57,329 nucleotides of DNA, from assembly GCA_037441385.1 (NCBI GenBank), contig JBBISH010000028.1:1-57329 (forward strand), written 5' to 3'. The notes under the pieces are model-generated. The model was not told the DNA's origin and did not search any database. It worked only from the letters and a program-made list of their open reading frames with translations. The position numbers were made by a program, and so were the translations under genes. The DNA comes from Myxococcales bacterium. GTDB lineage: Bacteria; Myxococcota_A; UBA9042. Below, one piece after another: positions 3,733 to 9,332 of this stretch. Position 1 is the first letter of the stretch. Each line of letters opens with the position of its first letter.

Positions 3733-5052
3733 CTACGCCACTCCACCGCCGCTGGGCAGCACGATGCGCGTCAGGTTGTCGGCGCTGCGGGCGCCGATGT
3801 GCAGATCGTCCTCGATGCGCACGCCGCCAAACGGGGCCAACGCCTCGACCAATCGCCAGTCCACCAGATGTCCGTGCAGTCCCTGACGCAACGGTTCGAG
3901 CAGGCCCGGGATGAAATACACGCCCGGCTCGATGGTGAACACCTGACCCGACTCAATGGTGCGGGTGTTGCGCAGCCAGGGGTTGTCGGCGCGCGGGGCG
4001 ATGCGGGCACAGCCCACGTCGTGGGTCTGCAGGCCCAGCGAGTGGCCCAAACCGTGCGGATAGAAAGCAAAGGTCACGTCTTTGGCCACTGCTTCTTCGG
4101 CGCCGCTGCGCACCACCCCCAGCTCGCGCAGCAGCTGACCGATGCGCAGGTGCGACTCGTCGTGCAGGTCTTGGTAGGGCCGGCCGACTACCGCGCCGTC
4201 GCACAGCTGCTGCTGGAGGCGCTCGACCCCGTTCACCAAAGCCAGGAACAGGTCTTTGCCAGCGCCATGCCCGCGCACCCAGGTGCGGGTGATGTCGGCG
4301 TGGTAGCCCATGCAAGTCGCGCCGGCGTCGAGCAAAAGCGAGGTGGCGTCGGGTTGATGGGCACTGCGGCCGTAGGCGACGTGATGGAGCACCGCGGCGT
4401 GTTCGCCCAGGGCCACGATGTTCTTGTACGGCGTCTCGGGGTCGTCTTGCGACGTGGCCAGCAGGTACCGCAGGTGCAGCTCCAACTCTATGCTGCCCCC
4501 CGCGGCAAAAGCCCGTCGCAGCTCGTCGTGGCCGGCAGCGGCGCGCGCATTCGCTTCGGCGATGCAAGCGACCTCGTAGGCGGTCTTGTGCACGCGCAAT
4601 TCGTCCAGGTCGCGCTCCAGCTCGGCGTGGCGCTGCAAGCGCTCGTCGGGCGGCGGGTCGCGCTGGTCGGCCACCCAGGCCAGCCTGCCGGCCGGCAGCA
4701 GCGGCGTCAGGTCGGCCAGGCCGCGAATCACTTGAATATCGAAGTGTTTCTCGAACAACCGGTGCTCGGGCGCTGGCGGACCCTCCCAGAAACTGCCCGG
4801 CTGGCACCAATACAGGCGCGGCCGCTGGCCCGGACTCAGTTGCAGCACGCAATCGGCCGCCTGCAAAGGCAGCCAGTGGCCAAAATGCGGCGTGATCCGC
4901 AGGCTCCAGCTTTGGTCGTCGTGGCTGCTGCGCGAGCGCGCCGTGCCGCTGTGGACCAGCACCGCGTCGCACGGGTGGCGCTGTAGCACGGCGGCGTAGT
5001 GACTCTGCAAGTGCTCGATATGGCTCTGATACAGCTGGTCCAATTGCGTCAT
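3733..5052 (-). CDS. pepQ: Xaa-Pro dipeptidase (prolidase, M24B)
   Basis: LLDAGA, ADITRT, PHGLGHSLGLQTHDVG, TIEPGVYFI and GGVRIEDD; start trimmed to MTQLDQLY. Confidence 0.92.
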   Translation of the reverse strand: MTQLDQLYQSHIEHLQSHYAAVLQRHPCDAVLVHSGTARSRSSHDDQSWSLRITPHFGHWLPLQAADCVLQLSPGQRPRLYWCQPGSFWEGPPAPEHRLFEKHFDIQVIRGLADLTPLLPAGRLAWVADQRDPPPDERLQRHAELERDLDELRVHKTAYEVACIAEANARAAAGHDELRRAFAAGGSIELELHLRYLLATSQDDPETPYKNIVALGEHAAVLHHVAYGRSAHQPDATSLLLDAGATCMGYHADITRTWVRGHGAGKDLFLALVNGVERLQQQLCDGAVVGRPYQDLHDESHLRIGQLLRELGVVRSGAEEAVAKDVTFAFYPHGLGHSLGLQTHDVGCARIAPRADNPWLRNTRTIESGQVFTIEPGVYFIPGLLEPLRQGLHGHLVDWRLVEALAPFGGVRIEDDLHIGARSADNLTRIVLPSGGGVA

Positions 5053-5157
5053 GGGCGGCTCGCGGGCCAGCGCGGCCCGTGCCCGGCAGTGTCGCACCGC
5101 ATCCCACTCTTGCCAACGGCCGCGGCGACGGCCCACACTCGCCGGCAGGAGGTGGCG

Positions 5158-5757
5158 ATGCAGCCCGAAATCCTGCCCGATCACCGCGCGCTGGTGGCCG
5201 ACGTCTTGGCGCGGAGCAACCGCGAGCTATGGAAAAACCTGTGCAACGGTGCGGATTTTGACCTTGCCGACTTGGCCGGCTGGCAGTACCAAGGACTGGC
5301 CTTGGGGCTGCCGCGCTGGGTTGAGCGGCTGAGCTGGAAGGTGTTCGTCAAGGCCTTTGCCCGCGACGCTGCCGGTGTCCACGGCTGGAACGTACGGATG
5401 CAGCAGGGCGGCCCGCAATTGTGCCTGCCGGGTGCGGAGATGCGGCCGCAACGCCGCGGCGCCGATCCGCGCACCTTTGGCCACTATCGGGTGGTGCCGA
5501 TGGCGCAATGGCCGCGCAAGCTGCCGTCTGGGCTGGCCAAAACCGGCGTCATGCTGGACTACGGCAGCGGCGCCAATCCGGCGCTGGATCCGATGCGGCC
5601 GATGCGCGACCCGCTGGTGGCGCTGCAATCTGGGGATCCTACGTGTCTTTTGGGCTGGTCCTACGTCGAGCTGGGGCCGCTGCGGGTGCCGACGCCGAGC
5701 TATTTCTTGTTGGTGCGCTGGCGTCCCGTCGATTTCGTCCCCCGGCATGTGGCTTGA
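5158..5757 (+). CDS. hypothetical protein
   Basis: GGAGG RBS before ATG 5158; globular composition; no recognised motif. Confidence 0.7.
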   Translation: MQPEILPDHRALVADVLARSNRELWKNLCNGADFDLADLAGWQYQGLALGLPRWVERLSWKVFVKAFARDAAGVHGWNVRMQQGGPQLCLPGAEMRPQRRGADPRTFGHYRVVPMAQWPRKLPSGLAKTGVMLDYGSGANPALDPMRPMRDPLVALQSGDPTCLLGWSYVELGPLRVPTPSYFLLVRWRPVDFVPRHVA

Positions 5758-5808
5758 CGGCGGCGCCGTGGTACGCTGGCGCGCGGGACCACGCAGTGAG
5801 GTAGATTG

Positions 5809-7077
5809 ATGCGCTTCAATCCGTTTACCCCCGAGGCGACGCGGCTGGTGCTGGTGCTGGTGGGCCTGCCGGCGCGCGGCAAGACGTTCATCGGGCGCAA
5901 GCTGGCCAGGTACTTGAACTGGCTGGGGTTTTCGGCGCGAGTCTTCAATATCGGCGACTACCGCCGCCAGCGTCTGGGCACCCACCACCGTCACGACTTC
6001 TTTGATCCCAGCAACCCAGAGGGCAACCGCCTGCGCAACGAGCTGGCCGGGCAAGCGTTGGATGACCTGATGAAGTGGATGCAGGCCGGCGGGCAGGTCG
6101 GCATCTACGACGCCACCAACACCAACCACCAGCGGCGGCGGCAAGTTCACGAGCGCTGCACGGAGGCGGGGCTCGACGTGGTGTTTGTAGAGTCGGTCTG
6201 CGAGGACCCGGCCATCGTCGAGGCCAACATCCGCGAGACCAAGCTGACCTCGCCGGACTACGAGGGCGCGGACCCAGACGAGGCCGTCCGCGACTTCCGC
6301 GCCCGCATCGACCACTACGCCCGCGCCTACGAGCCGATGAGCGAGGACGACTACTCGTACATCAAGCTCATCGACGTGGGGCGCGTCATCGTGATGCACG
6401 CCATCCATGGCTACGTGCCCGGCAAGCTCGTCAACTTCTTGATGAATCTGCACCTGGTGCGCCGGCCGATCTGGCTGACCCGCCACGGCGAGTCGCAGTT
6501 CAACGTGCACGAGCGCATCGGCGGCGACTCGCCCTTGACCACTCAAGGCAAGGCGTATTCGGCGGCGCTGGCGCACTTTGTCCGCGAGCACGCGATTCGG
6601 CCGCCCATCGTGTGGACCAGTACGCTGCGCCGCACCATCGAGACCGCCAAACCGCTGCAAGTGCCGTCGCTGACCTGGCGCGCCCTGGACGAGATCGACG
6701 CAGGCACCTGCGACGGGCTGACCTACGCCGAAATTGCCGAGAAATATCCAGAAGAATACAACGCCCGCCGCAAGGACAAACTGAACTACCGCTACCCGCG
6801 TGGCGAGAGCTATACCGACGTCATCCAGCGCCTGGAGCCGGTCATCCTGGAGCTGGAGCGCGAGCGCGAGCCCGTGCTGGTCATCGGCCACCAGGCGGTT
6901 TTGCGCATGTTGTACGCCTACTTCATGGATCGCCGCCCCGAAGACGTGGTGAACATGGAGATCCCCATCCATACGGTCATCGAGCTCACGCCCGGTCCCT
7001 ACGCGTTCGAGGAGCGCCGCTACTGCCTGGACATCGGCGCGGATCCGTCGACCTGGGGCGCTGCCATGAACGAGTAG
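5809..7077 (+). CDS. bifunctional 6-phosphofructo-2-kinase/fructose-2,6-bisphosphatase (PFKFB type)
   Basis: Kinase half: VGLPARGKT, YLNWLG, VFNIGDYRR, DATNT, FVESVC, SPDY, SYIKLIDVG. Histidine-phosphatase half: RHGES, DEIDAG, YRYPRGESY, HQAVLR. Confidence 0.95.
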   Translation: MRFNPFTPEATRLVLVLVGLPARGKTFIGRKLARYLNWLGFSARVFNIGDYRRQRLGTHHRHDFFDPSNPEGNRLRNELAGQALDDLMKWMQAGGQVGIYDATNTNHQRRRQVHERCTEAGLDVVFVESVCEDPAIVEANIRETKLTSPDYEGADPDEAVRDFRARIDHYARAYEPMSEDDYSYIKLIDVGRVIVMHAIHGYVPGKLVNFLMNLHLVRRPIWLTRHGESQFNVHERIGGDSPLTTQGKAYSAALAHFVREHAIRPPIVWTSTLRRTIETAKPLQVPSLTWRALDEIDAGTCDGLTYAEIAEKYPEEYNARRKDKLNYRYPRGESYTDVIQRLEPVILELEREREPVLVIGHQAVLRMLYAYFMDRRPEDVVNMEIPIHTVIELTPGPYAFEERRYCLDIGADPSTWGAAMNE

Positions 7078-7101
7078 CCGTGGCTTGGGCGGCCAGTTCG
7101 C

Positions 7102-7119
7102 GTGACGCGACGATGACGC
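7102..7119. promoter_or_regulatory. Pho-box-like 11-bp-period direct repeat upstream of pit
   Basis: GTGACGC-gacg-ATGACGC; the reverse complement GCGTCAT-N4-GCGTCAC resembles CTGTCAT-N4-CTGTCAC. Confidence 0.3.
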
Positions 7120-7282
7120 AGGCGCTCGCCTCTGGGCCGGTTGCGAGGCCATTGGACCTGAATTTCAAAGAAGATATCGGGAATTTCGCGAATTTGCCTG
7201 GGTTGGCCAAATACCCCATCTTCACCAAGACGGCTGCGCGGCCGCCGCTCCTGCCCTGCGCAAGATTCTCCCCCGGTGGTCC

Positions 7283-8272
7283 ATGCTTGTGTCGCTCGTT
7301 GTCCTTATTGCCGCGGCACTCGTCTTCGACTTCCTGAACGGTTTTCACGACGCATCGAACATCGTCGCCACCATGATTTCGTCGCGGGCGGTGTCGCCGC
7401 GCAAGGCCTTGGCCCTGGTCACCATTGGCGAGGTGAGCGGCCCCTTCCTGTTCGGCGTGGCGGTGGCGACCACCATCGGCTCCGGGGTGGTCGAGAAGGG
7501 CGCCGTGACGATGCCCGTGCTGATCGCCGCGTTGTGCGGCGCCATCGCCTGGAACGTGATCACCTGGTTCTTTGGCATTCCGTCCAGCTCGTCGCACGCG
7601 CTGGTGGGCGGCATCATCGGCGCGGTGGTGGTCGAGCACGGGTTCTCGGCGCTCATGTGGAGCGGCATCAGCAAGATCCTGCTGGCGCTCTTCATTTCGC
7701 CGCCCTTGGGCCTGCTCGGCGGCTTCATCATCCAGCGCGCCATCGTGATCAGCCTGAAGGCGACCCATGCGCGGCCGGGCGCCAACTGGATCTTCCGCAA
7801 CGGCCAGCTGTTCACCAGCGCGTGGCTGGCGCTCTCGCACGGCAGCAACGACGCTCAGAAGACCATGGGCATCATCACCATGGGCCTGCTCGCTACCGGG
7901 CAGATCCACGAGTTCGCCGTGCCCAAGTGGGTGATCGCCATGTCGGCCGCCGCCATCGGCCTGGGCACCGCCACCGGCGGCTGGCGGCTGATCAAGACCT
8001 TGGGCTACGGCTTCTACAAAGTGTGGCCCATTCATGCCTTTACCACGCAGCTGTCGTCGGCAGTCGTCATCTTGTCGGCGGCCTTGCTGGGCGGCCCGGT
8101 CAGCACGACGCAGGTGGTGTCCAGCGCGATCGTCGGCGTCGGCGCCTCGGAGCGGGTACAAAAGGTGCGCTGGACGGTGGCCGGGCAAATCGTGATCGCC
8201 TGGGTTCTGACGATTCCCTCGGCCAGCCTAGTGGCCGCCGGGGTGTACCTACTGGTGCGGAGGTTTTCATGA
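7283..8272 (+). CDS. pit: inorganic phosphate transporter, PiT family
   Basis: NGFHDASN and HGSNDAQK signatures, GIPSSSSHAL, PVSTTQ; multiple TM helices. Confidence 0.95.
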   Translation: MLVSLVVLIAAALVFDFLNGFHDASNIVATMISSRAVSPRKALALVTIGEVSGPFLFGVAVATTIGSGVVEKGAVTMPVLIAALCGAIAWNVITWFFGIPSSSSHALVGGIIGAVVVEHGFSALMWSGISKILLALFISPPLGLLGGFIIQRAIVISLKATHARPGANWIFRNGQLFTSAWLALSHGSNDAQKTMGIITMGLLATGQIHEFAVPKWVIAMSAAAIGLGTATGGWRLIKTLGYGFYKVWPIHAFTTQLSSAVVILSAALLGGPVSTTQVVSSAIVGVGASERVQKVRWTVAGQIVIAWVLTIPSASLVAAGVYLLVRRFS

Positions 8273-8901
8273 GCTGGCTGAGCAACCCGCTGAAGCCGAC
8301 CAAGGACCGCTTCATGGAGCGGCTGATCCGCCAAGCGCAGGCTTGCGAGGACGGCTTGGCCGGCTTGCTCGAGTACGTCAAGAACCCCGATCCGGCGGTG
8401 GCGAACCTGGTGCACCAGGCCGAGCAGCGCGGCGACGAGGAGCGGCGGCTGCTGATCGACGAACTGAACCACACGTTTGTGACCCCGATCGACCGCGAAG
8501 ATCTGTTCGCCCTGTCGCGGGCGGTGGACGACGTGCTGGACTATGCCCTGTCGACCGTAGAGGAAATGGCGCTGTTTGGCGTACAGTCCAACCCGTACCT
8601 GGTCGACATGGCCCAGGCGATGCACCAGGCTGGCCGCGAGCTGCACGCCTCGCTGGAGCTGCTGGTCGACCACCCGGCCGTCGCCAACGAGCACGCCATT
8701 GCTGCAAAACGGCTAGAGAATCAGGTCGAAGCGGTGTACCGCCAGGCGCTGGCGGCGCTGTTCAACCAAAAGGTCGAGAATTTTGAGCTGATGCTCGACA
8801 TCTTGAAGGCGCGCGAGGTCTACCGGCACTTGTCCAACGCCGCCGACCGCGCCGACACGGCTGGCAATATCATTACCGACATCATCATGAAGATCATGTA
8901 G
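8269..8901 (+). CDS. DUF47 (PhoU-like) phosphate transport regulator
   Basis: TFVTPIDREDL..L...DDVLD motif; ATGA overlap with pit. Confidence 0.92.
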   Translation: MSWLSNPLKPTKDRFMERLIRQAQACEDGLAGLLEYVKNPDPAVANLVHQAEQRGDEERRLLIDELNHTFVTPIDREDLFALSRAVDDVLDYALSTVEEMALFGVQSNPYLVDMAQAMHQAGRELHASLELLVDHPAVANEHAIAAKRLENQVEAVYRQALAALFNQKVENFELMLDILKAREVYRHLSNAADRADTAGNIITDIIMKIM

Positions 8902-9332
8902 TTTAGCTTTGCTCGCGAGGCGCCAGCGCCCACCTAAATCCGGGGCGCCGCTGCCTTGAAGCGAACTCAGCATCGAGGCGATGGCTGGACGCGTATCTGT
9001 AGGGCGACGCAGGGAACCGGTCTTGAATCCGCCAGCCTTGCGCGGGTTGCCTTACGGCACTCTGGGTGGCTGGCGCTAGCCTCGGTGGAACTGGTTGATC
9101 CCTGGAACGTCAAATACATCGGCGATATTGAAGGTGAAACATCATCGTTGGCTCGCGTTGACGCGCACGGGCCGGGCGCGTACCCTCGGTGTTGGCTCGC
9201 CTGAACCGTGATCCCGTCGGGCGGTCGAGCGGCAGACCATGGCCACCCCCCGCGTGCTCCGGTAGCCGCCGCAAGCTCCACTTGCGATTGCACGATTGCG
9301 CCACAAAGTTACCCAAGCGAGGCCACAACGCC

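Follow-up and report, generated by a model that had tools for sequence, protein, structure and literature searches.

Can a bacterium make and break down fructose-2,6-bisphosphate (Fru-2,6-P2) with a single enzyme of the animal and plant type, and on what would the metabolite act? Fru-2,6-P2 control of glycolysis is still described as eukaryote-specific in the discussion of PMC12873801, and the introduction of PMC9721465 describes it likewise, allowing one bacterial exception. The question is raised by a gene for an apparent 6-phosphofructo-2-kinase/fructose-2,6-bisphosphatase (PFK-2/FBPase-2) in the window, the 57,329-nucleotide stretch of a Myxococcales bacterium genome that was analyzed here. 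Features of the locus are compiled in Table 1.

Table 1. Features at the PFK-2/FBPase-2 locus (positions are those of the window).
Feature	Position	Strand	Basis or remark
Upstream ORF, 199 aa, no family match	5158..5757	+	Ends 51 bp before the PFK-2/FBPase-2 gene
GAGG, Shine-Dalgarno-like	5798..5801	+	Read from the sequence; 7 nt before the ATG
PFK-2/FBPase-2 gene	5809..7077	+	422 aa plus stop; ORF list, translation, Pfam, full-length match to PFKFB1-4 structures
6-Phosphofructo-2-kinase domain, aa 10-216	5836..6456	+	Pfam PF01591 6PF2K, E 3.5e-77; scan of the genome, 5833-6456
Fructose-2,6-bisphosphatase (histidine phosphatase) domain, aa 221-403	6469..7017	+	Pfam PF00300 His_Phos_1, E 1.9e-41

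The open reading frame has an alternative TTG start at 5806 (5806/5809..7077, plus strand). The ATG at 5809 was taken as the start because the resulting length equals that of a 93%-identical public homologue (P0002) and because GAGG lies upstream of it. The Pfam scores were 259 bits for 6PF2K (cut-off 27) and 142 bits for His_Phos_1 (cut-off 21.7), with the kinase domain N-terminal and the phosphatase domain C-terminal in one chain, which is the eukaryotic order. Human PFKFB3 aligned end to end with the window protein (E 2.7e-124, aa 8-401 of 422), the PFKFB1/2/4 structures matched it over aa 8-410 (E about 1e-119 to 1e-116), and the isolated rat FBPase-2 domain (1c7z/1fbt) matched its phosphatase domain (E 1.7e-62). 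As judged from these sequence matches, the similarity to the PFKFB family is far above chance. A preliminary description of the locus, made from the letters alone, had proposed a full two-domain, eukaryote-type enzyme without long regulatory tails; the Pfam order and the span of the PFKFB3 alignment bear out both proposals. A scan of the genome found the gene in single copy.

Animal PFKFB1-4 (PFKFB3, 2axn/6ic0; rat testis PFKFB4, 1bif; human liver PFKFB1, 1k6m; heart PFKFB2, 5htk) share with the window protein the domain order, alignment over the full length and the same Walker A, Fru-6-P-site and His/Glu/His phosphatase columns. In contrast to them, the window protein is core-only, with some 7-12 residues before the core and about 20 after it. 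The N-terminal autoregulatory segment, an element described for PFKFB3 in PMC6937325, and the C-terminal phosphorylation tail are absent, and the protein therefore does not share the animal isoform trait of terminal regulatory tails with protein-kinase sites. The hosts differ as well, since the one studied here is a bacterium without the eukaryote-type duplicated PFK-1. Plant and oomycete F2KP-type proteins are longer (572-1024 aa vs. 422 aa), having long extensions at the N terminus or modules that bind carbohydrate (CBM20, AMPK1_CBM). The same architecture as that of the window protein was found in three proteins of Sorangium (P0099, P0102, and P0112), which fall in the same clade, and in the previously noted homologue of Desulfovibrio desulfuricans. 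Unlike the Sorangium proteins, the window protein belongs to a lineage of another family, uncultured and from freshwater or the subsurface.

All of the motifs named in the preliminary description were located in the translation: GLPARGKT (aa 19-26, Walker A), DATN (101-104), RHGE (225-228), EIDAG (295-299), YPRGESY (within 327-335), and HQAV (361-364). Column conservation was assessed in an alignment of 79 rows (28 Myxococcota, 48 eukaryote and three marine). No Myxococcota row (0 of 28) departs from K25, R52, R53, D101, T103, N104, K145, R166, and Y170, and 36-48 of the 48 eukaryote rows have them as well; the phosphatase-site residues R225, H226, N232, R275, E295, R320, K324, and H361, which comprise the RHG histidine, the catalytic Glu, the second His, and phosphate-binding Arg and Lys, were kept in 28/28 Myxococcota and 43-47/48 eukaryote rows. 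Kinase-site positions G19, P21, G24, K25, T26, R52, R53, R76, D101, T103, N104, R109, K145, R166, and Y170 were near-invariant over the 79 rows, and among them R52, R53, R76, T103, R109, R166, and Y170 are the sugar-phosphate-site columns. In the PFKFB family, Fru-6-P is held by basic, Thr, and Tyr residues of this kind. Position 275 is Arg in the window protein and in 46 of the 48 eukaryote rows; PFKFB3 has Ser302 there, a position of known significance. The loop that binds ATP (Pro43-Thr48) and Glu322 of PFKFB3, both named in PMC6937325, correspond to P21-T26 and E295 of the window protein, and PMC9721465 describes the RHG histidine as important. Every catalytic and substrate-site column checked was intact in the window protein, which is apparently a complete and functional PFK-2/FBPase-2.

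The genome is a MAG in 221 contigs and the window protein has about 50% identity with its eukaryotic counterparts, as might be expected if the gene were an artefact, whether eukaryotic contamination, a mis-assembled chimera or a very recent, non-functional acquisition. Positions 4848-8059 of the window are, however, collinear with an independent MAG contig (L036; 86% DNA identity) across both gene junctions, and a second independent MAG contig (L037) is also collinear over both junctions, in three pieces. A 12,078-bp contig from a second assembler covers 4500-8500 with 0 differences, although it probably derives from the same sample and hence is not independent. The GC content of the gene (0.65-0.66) lies within the range of its flanks (0.64-0.73), its GC3 is 0.89 compared with 0.91 for the neighboring Pit gene, the reading frame is intact, and a Shine-Dalgarno-like motif precedes the start. 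In the window's own family, the gene was found in 27 of 28 genomes, and these copies formed one clade (support 99/98 in the careful tree). Collinearity of the two MAG contigs over both junctions, together with the presence of the gene throughout the family, excludes contamination and chimerism; the gene is encoded by the bacterium itself. What had been called unlikely from the base composition and gene context is thus refuted, and we consider the probability of an artefact to be negligible.

Of 401 genomes sampled from the phylum, which the nearest public records name as Myxococcota, 81 contained the kinase domain, distributed over 13 families. Cultured Sorangium carries copies as well, under the NCBI name 6-phosphofructo-2-kinase/fructose-2,6-bisphosphatase; the three Sorangium proteins share 59-60% identity with the window protein across 95-96% of its residues. 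Identity within the bacterial clade ranged from 51 to 93%. In Myxococcota it is a genuine and widely distributed gene, and the bacterial clade has retained it over the long term. The earlier view that only sporadic deltaproteobacterial homologues exist does not survive these counts and the annotated Sorangium proteins. Bacterial homologues as such are already known, from the annotated Sorangium entries and from Desulfovibrio desulfuricans, where one was noted about 20 years ago (Rider et al., 2004, according to PMC9721465). A literature search found no assay or metabolite data for any bacterial PFK-2/FBPase-2 and nothing on PFKFB or 6-phosphofructo-2-kinase in Myxococcota. A query for 6-bisphosphatase in myxobacteria gave nothing on PFK-2/FBPase-2 (one study concerned fructose-1,6-bisphosphatase, GlpX, and the others were judged by title), and among the matches listed for 6-phosphofructo-2-kinase and Desulfovibrio only PMC9721465 was relevant. 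A contig search with the window protein alone returned six close relatives and four unrelated histidine phosphatases and offers no view of other phyla. With a predicted catalytically intact enzyme in about one fifth of the sampled Myxococcota, the eukaryote-only statement becomes directly testable because some of the carriers are culturable Sorangium.

The neighborhood of the gene was not conserved. The upstream ORF, which may be co-transcribed with the PFK-2/FBPase-2 gene, had 86% amino acid identity in L036 and 76% in L037 and no match in L038-L041, so that it is conserved in the closest relatives only; its 252-aa version matched no Pfam or NCBIfam family. When the neighbors were compared by tblastn with 19 further loci, the Pit/PhoU-like/kinase side was shared by none of them and the PepQ side only by the locus from the same genus, which rules out a conserved operon around the gene. 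Pfam analysis of 77 flanking ORFs revealed no recurrent sugar-metabolism partner, a negative that is imperfect because the GC3-based ORF picker missed a PFK gene adjoining the gene in L029. Scans of positions 5000-9300 gave 0 promoter-like sites and two terminator-like sites (2.9 expected), nothing that could be used. The gene divergently adjoins a PPi-PFK-type gene in seven of the 81 carriers (six of nine in family f42 and one of two in f36), with aligned coding starts 76-314 bp apart. This is the enzyme type that, in plants, is activated by the F2KP product (PMC12203962). In G263, the PPi-PFK-type neighbor was the sole PFK-family gene found, and neither a class I nor a GlpX FBPase was found.

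The genome of the window contains two candidate targets, both on contigs other than that of the PFK-2/FBPase-2 gene. One is a class I FBPase (NF006778, 425 bits vs. 368; best PDB match the 2gq1-group FBPase, E 2e-88), and the other a PPi-PFK on contig C37 (NF041103, 635 vs. 550) with GGDDT and PKTIDND motifs; GlpX was not found in this genome, which is 90.9% complete. Three PFK-family genes were present (about 375, at most 542, and 426 aa), belonging to the bacterial ATP-PFK subfamily, the PRK06830-type ATP-PFKs and the PPi-PFKs. In PFK-1 of yeast and animals, it is the duplicated C-terminal half that provides the Fru-2,6-P2 effector site (PMC12203962). Each of the three genes had one Pfam PFK match, and these single-domain enzymes therefore lack the duplicated half; a eukaryote-type duplicated PFK-1 was absent among them. 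Class I FBPase was detected in 73 of 81 carriers and 138 of 320 non-carriers, a comparison made by manual intersection among related genomes that are not independent. The eight carriers lacking it include all three genomes of genus g5 (94-95% complete), in which neither class I nor GlpX FBPase was found. The PPi-PFK-type gene was not commoner in carriers (19/81) than in non-carriers (98/320), and a general association with PPi-PFK was rejected on these counts. No candidate target is universal among carriers.

On this evidence, the gene probably encodes a genuine bifunctional, core-only PFK-2/FBPase-2, whose product would most likely act on the Fru-6-P/Fru-1,6-P2 step; we infer that the protein has both activities, that the cell contains Fru-2,6-P2 and which enzymes this would act on. 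The N-terminal P-loop kinase would phosphorylate fructose-6-phosphate at C2 with ATP, and the C-terminal histidine phosphatase would hydrolyze the product back through a phospho-His226 intermediate. Since one protein would both make and hydrolyze Fru-2,6-P2, the ratio of the two activities would set its level. Substrates and metabolites, or the level of expression, would most likely exert control, because the phosphorylation tails of the animal enzymes are absent. Two routes of action can be proposed. Class I FBPases are inhibited by Fru-2,6-P2, which competes at their active site (PMC5639204), and inhibition of the bacterial enzyme in this manner would need no specially evolved allosteric site. 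In lineages with a PPi-dependent PFK, Fru-2,6-P2 may instead modulate that enzyme, as in plants, whose PPi-PFKs are activated by it; according to PMC12203962, which is also the source for the plant enzymes, no bacterial PPi-PFK characterized to date is allosteric. If the metabolite is both made and sensed, a new layer of bacterial central-carbon regulation would be added, and with it either such a switch on FBPase or an allosteric PPi-PFK, which would be the first in bacteria.

The enzyme might be active on Fru-2,6-P2 and yet serve a target other than FBPase or PFP, which could be pyruvate kinase, some transcription factor or a novel effector site in bacteria. In trypanosomatids, Fru-2,6-P2 acts on pyruvate kinase, and the incomplete occurrence of class I FBPase and of the PPi-PFK-type gene among carriers would fit such a target, as would the retention of the gene in genus g5. 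We nevertheless regard this as unlikely, given that class I FBPase is enriched in carriers, that its inhibition needs just the conserved active site (PMC5639204), and that the only recurrent functional neighbor is a PFK-family gene, in seven genomes; our analysis identified no alternative target. It is distinctly improbable that the protein has drifted to a single activity or to another substrate, being phosphatase-only like yeast FBP26, kinase-only, or specific for a different sugar-bisphosphate, with no Fru-2,6-P2 signaling. The kinase and phosphatase columns that were checked, among them T103, Y170, and the arginines of the Fru-6-P site, are intact in the window protein and in all 28 Myxococcota rows, and position 275 is Arg as in most eukaryote rows. 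Monofunctional members of the family do occur in fungi and trypanosomatids, clusters named as fungal fructose-2,6-bisphosphate 2-phosphatase are among the representatives (P0136, P0229), and the literature search yielded no assay of a bacterial member that would speak against drift.

The preliminary description had also suggested that the gene may inform the origin of PFKFB, and a phylogeny against the eukaryotic enzymes addressed this. In a tree of Myxococcota, marine prokaryote-like and eukaryotic rows, the bacterial copies formed essentially one clade; it lay among all eukaryotic supergroups on a backbone whose deep branches were unresolved, and the tree therefore gives no direction of transfer and none for the origin of PFKFB. 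Twenty-six of the 28 Myxococcota rows formed a supported clade (96/93), which two f39 rows and one eukaryote pair joined weakly (80/68), and a branch separating all 28 from the remaining rows appeared in 28% of the bootstrap trees. A marine prokaryote-like clade grouped with Holozoa-like rows (98/98) in the free tree, but holding all 31 prokaryote rows together was not rejected by the AU test (delta lnL 13.7, p 0.31), and for this reason a separate origin of the marine clade, implying two transfers, is not claimed. F2KP-type sequences of Phytophthora (P0180), Rhodelphis (P0127), and Volvox (P0144) were among the nearest eukaryotic neighbors in both trees, with weak support. A bolder proposal, which we put forward as doubtful, is that Fru-2,6-P2 signaling is not a eukaryotic invention: an old, vertically inherited enzyme of Myxococcota and other former 'Deltaproteobacteria' would regulate a reversible PPi-PFK and/or class I FBPase, and eukaryotic PFKFB would derive from a bacterial enzyme of this core type, taken up at about the time of eukaryogenesis, and not the other way round. 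An ancient bacterial clade would bear on the source of the eukaryotic regulator. The minimal core of the bacterial proteins and the pairing with a PFP-type gene in seven genomes are compatible with a bacterial origin, as is the divergence within the bacterial clade (to about 50% identity), which is as deep as that between bacteria and eukaryotes.

The reading frame under study, translated from the ATG at 5809 with a GAGG 7 nt before it, encodes 422 aa, the length also of its nearest public homologue (P0002, 93% identical). The preliminary description of a complete two-domain PFK-2/FBPase-2 lacking long regulatory tails was borne out by the order of the Pfam domains and by a PDB sequence alignment with human PFKFB3 over aa 8-401 (E 2.7e-124), and the motifs named there were all recovered in the translation and a 79-row alignment. 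Similar alignments were obtained with the isoforms from rat testis, human heart and human liver (E 8e-119 to 1.3e-116); for the rat bisphosphatase domain in isolation E was 1.7e-62. Animal PFKFB proteins have an N-terminal autoregulatory segment and a C-terminal tail, whereas the translation and PDB alignment show neither in the window protein. NCBIfam holds no dedicated PFK-2/FBPase-2 model; the protein matched other histidine phosphatases in that collection, all sub-threshold. It is almost certainly an intact member of the PFK-2/FBPase-2 family.

Features of the PFK-2/FBPase-2 locus, its protein, the candidate target enzymes of the genome and the divergent gene pairs of other carriers
Feature	Location	Strand	Details
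PFK-2/FBPase-2 open frame	5806/5809..7077	+	ORF listing of the window
6PF2K domain	aa 10-216		Pfam E 3.5e-77
His_Phos_1 domain	aa 221-403		after 6PF2K; Pfam E 1.9e-41
Kinase columns kept	G19, P21, G24, K25, T26, R52, R53, R76, D101, T103, N104, R109, R110, K145, D150, R166, Y170
Phosphatase columns kept	R225, H226, G227, N232, R275, E295, Y306, R320, K324, H361, Q362
ORF of 199 aa without known family	5158-5757	+	ends 51 bp upstream of the PFK-2/FBPase-2 gene
PepQ-type peptidase	upstream of the 199-aa ORF	opposite
PHO4/Pit phosphate transporter	starts 205 bp downstream of the PFK-2/FBPase-2 gene
PhoU_div protein, then the Ser/Thr kinase of the next row	downstream of the Pit gene
Ser/Thr protein kinase, 960 aa	9189-12071	+	C-terminal TPR repeats; two genes downstream
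ATP-PFK, bacterial subfamily			NF002872, 349 bits vs 253; GGDGS
ATP-PFK, PRK06830-type			606 bits vs 400; GGDGT
PPi-PFK			NF041103, 635 bits vs 550; GGDDT, PKTIDND
Class I FBPase			NF006778, 425 bits vs 368; best PDB match 2gq1-group, E 2e-88
Divergent-pair genomes			G118, G170 (family f42, genus g96); G140, G187, G209, G241 (f42, g113); G263 (f36, g88)
Divergent-pair loci	L029:6111-8598, L046:1595-4096, L047:995-3549, L048:1627-4336, L049:1563-4267, L050:2338-4862, L051:613-3186

Homologues had been described as sporadic, which proved too weak a term for the phylum. A word-indexed protein search gave 5,993 matches at E <= 1e-3 among 7,999 scored candidates; the best 120 were all 392-445 aa long and 58-93% identical, and came from metagenome-assembled genomes (MAGs) named Deltaproteobacteria, Myxococcales, Myxococcota and Polyangiaceae and from cultured Sorangium cellulosum and Sorangium sp. 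In whole-genome scans for the kinase domain (E <= 1e-10), 27 of 28 further genomes from the window's family were carriers and no carrier was detected in the other sampled families of its class. Carriers made up 81 of the 401 genomes in the phylum sample, the window's genome included, and spanned 13 families; the same scan of 14 control genomes detected none. The fructose-2,6-bisphosphate system is treated as eukaryote-specific in the available text of PMC12873801 (citing Michels & Rigden 2006), and that of PMC9721465 admits Desulfovibrio desulfuricans as a single bacterial exception, with reference to Rider et al. 2004. The gene is a known kind of bacterial gene, the Sorangium proteins being already labelled 6-phosphofructo-2-kinase/fructose-2,6-bisphosphatase by NCBI. 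Literature searches covering the Myxococcota clade and assays of bacterial members returned nothing relevant. Four points are new here: how large this clade is, that one uncultured family retains the gene almost universally, that class I FBPase co-occurs with it, and that some carriers have it divergently paired with a PFK-type gene.

When 1.84 billion cluster representatives were searched exhaustively with HMMER, 14,149 matched at E <= 1e-3, of which 1,311 reached E <= 1e-30; the top 150 of the 14,149 showed 39-61% identity, with lengths mostly of 450-1,000 aa. Source was checked for 30 of these 150. Twelve carried eukaryotic names (Acytostelium, Flabellula and Dermamoeba of the Amoebozoa, Volvox, Rhodelphis, Phytophthora, Syssomonas, Sodiomyces, Brettanomyces, Pygsuia, Reticulomyxa and an insect-labelled member), two were unnamed transcriptome ORFs from eukaryote collections (P0122, MMETSP; P0129, eukprot), one was a Myxococcota MAG cluster (P0135), two (P0223 and P0235) belonged to a marine prokaryote-like cluster of ~408-aa proteins on contigs of up to 64 kb, and 13 lacked an organism name. 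In the top-scoring representative, P0122 (1069 aa), a complete PFK-2/FBPase-2 unit is repeated in tandem, at aa 71-486 and again at 603-1036.

A FastTree phylogeny of 133 rows united all 37 known bacterial rows with representatives P0135 and P0206 (SH-like support 96). In a more careful IQ-TREE analysis (79 rows, 417 columns, LG+C20 PMSF), 26 of the 28 Myxococcota rows formed a supported clade (96/93), to which two rows of family f39 and a eukaryote pair (P0126/P0151), with features like those of oomycete and plant-type enzymes, attached weakly (80/68). The window's family formed one clade (99/98), the marine cluster grouped with Holozoa-like rows (98/98) and the backbone lacked resolution. 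Since a tree uniting all 31 prokaryote rows was not rejected (AU test, p 0.31), these supports show one old bacterial clade amid eukaryotic lineages and do not indicate donor or recipient. Phylogeny, to which the preliminary description had looked for the origin of the eukaryotic enzyme, thus supplied the clade and not the direction of transfer. The marine cluster (P0223, P0235 and P0296-P0309) is unusual in amino-acid composition and includes one member labelled Methylobacterium sp.

We propose that the protein would act as a functional minimal PFK-2/FBPase-2 that sets the Fru-2,6-P2 level, and that Fru-2,6-P2 would likely act on class I FBPase, plus PPi-PFK where present; this whole statement, synthesis in vivo included, is probably correct. 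That the gene is instead an artefact is a negligible prospect. Its contig belongs to a 6.63-Mb, 221-contig genome (90.9% complete, 1.2% contamination) with one copy of the gene, whose GC content (0.65-0.66) and GC3 (0.89) resemble those of the surroundings (0.64-0.73) and the adjoining Pit gene (0.91). Window positions 4848-8059, comprising the gene and both flanks, were collinear with an independent MAG contig (L036) at 86% DNA identity and, in three pieces, with another (L037) at 74-82%. A 12,078-bp contig from sequencing run X1, made with a different assembler, had 0 differences over 4500-8500, X1 being possibly the source sample and hence not independent. Contamination, already thought unlikely in the preliminary description, and a chimera at the flanks were set aside. 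A monofunctional or re-purposed enzyme is a less remote alternative, though still improbable. Every column checked is kept in the window protein (79-row alignment), and 16 key columns are retained in all 28 Myxococcota rows. Position 275 is Arg, as against Ser302 in PFKFB3, a residue that we take to be linked to the weak phosphatase activity of that isoform; because of this replacement, the bacterial phosphatase should be competent and liver/testis-like. Residue roles other than the PFKFB3 anchors and the RHG histidine are presumed from the PFKFB literature. The PFKFB3 mapping was anchored on two elements named in the available text of PMC6937325, and the RHG histidine is described as required in that of PMC9721465.

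For the targets, the case for class I FBPase and PPi-PFK is about evenly balanced, and another target of Fru-2,6-P2 is unlikely, if somewhat less so than a monofunctional or re-purposed enzyme. The window's genome encodes three PFK-family proteins and a class I FBPase; GlpX was not found in this 90.9% complete genome. The top PDB match of its PPi-PFK was 9dqm, a pyrophosphate-dependent enzyme (E 6.9e-105). According to the available text of PMC12203962, yeast and animal PFK-1 form their F26BP site from a duplicated half, whereas the three PFKs of this genome lack such a half because all are single-domain. The same text describes the characterised bacterial PPi-PFKs as all non-allosteric and plant PFPs as activated by F26BP. 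In class I FBPases F26BP is a competitive inhibitor at the conserved active site (available text of PMC5639204), and because that site is the target, inhibition would need no special adaptation. Class I FBPase was detected in 211 of the 401 genomes, 73 of 81 carriers vs 138 of 320 non-carriers, counts obtained by manual intersection of two 401-genome scans in which related genomes are not independent. Among the eight carriers without it are all three of the genus g5 genomes (G014, G024, G029; 94-95% complete), where GlpX was also not found; the gluconeogenic FBPase of these genomes, should there be one, either belongs to another type or escaped detection. PPi-PFK-type genes (E <= 1e-130) were present in 117 of the 401 genomes, 19 of 81 carriers vs 98 of 320 non-carriers, and so show no general link between PFK-2/FBPase-2 and PPi-PFK.

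The PPi-PFK scan revealed seven carriers in which PFK-2/FBPase-2 and a PPi-PFK-type gene are arranged head to head, with 76-314 bp between the aligned coding starts; these comprise six of the nine carriers in family f42 and one of the two in f36. The PFK-type neighbours have GGDDT in three pairs and GGDGT in four, a position that we take to be the phosphoryl-donor motif, with GGDDT as the PPi type. G263 yielded no PFK-family gene besides the paired neighbour, and a search for class I and GlpX FBPases found neither; the reversible PFK-type neighbour is the obvious candidate target there. This pairing, in genomes other than the window's, is the strongest contextual hint tying the bacterial enzyme to the Fru-6-P/Fru-1,6-P2 step.

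The window's own flanking genes are not conserved past its closest relatives among the loci compared, and 77 flanking ORFs from 20 loci showed only genus-level synteny. The placement of the 960-aa Ser/Thr kinase downstream is likewise not kept at other loci. The two closest MAGs keep the 199-aa ORF (86% and 76% aa identity), which was not found in more distant loci of the same genus. Ahead of the Pit gene, an AT-richer spacer (7160-7215) holds three close GAATTTC/GAATTTG copies, which may serve as a regulatory site. Genus g9 has a TMEM260-like protein O-mannosyltransferase homologue and a PTPS gene immediately before the PFK-2/FBPase-2 gene (L018:6942-8912, L019:4409-6397, L020:4195-6183), again a genus-level arrangement. 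Two genomes of the window's family encode, close to the gene, large proteins with Dictyostelium-type CTDC repeats (L016:8325-10268 and L020:7450-9852; Pfam Dicty_CTDC E 6e-45 and 4e-17, respectively).
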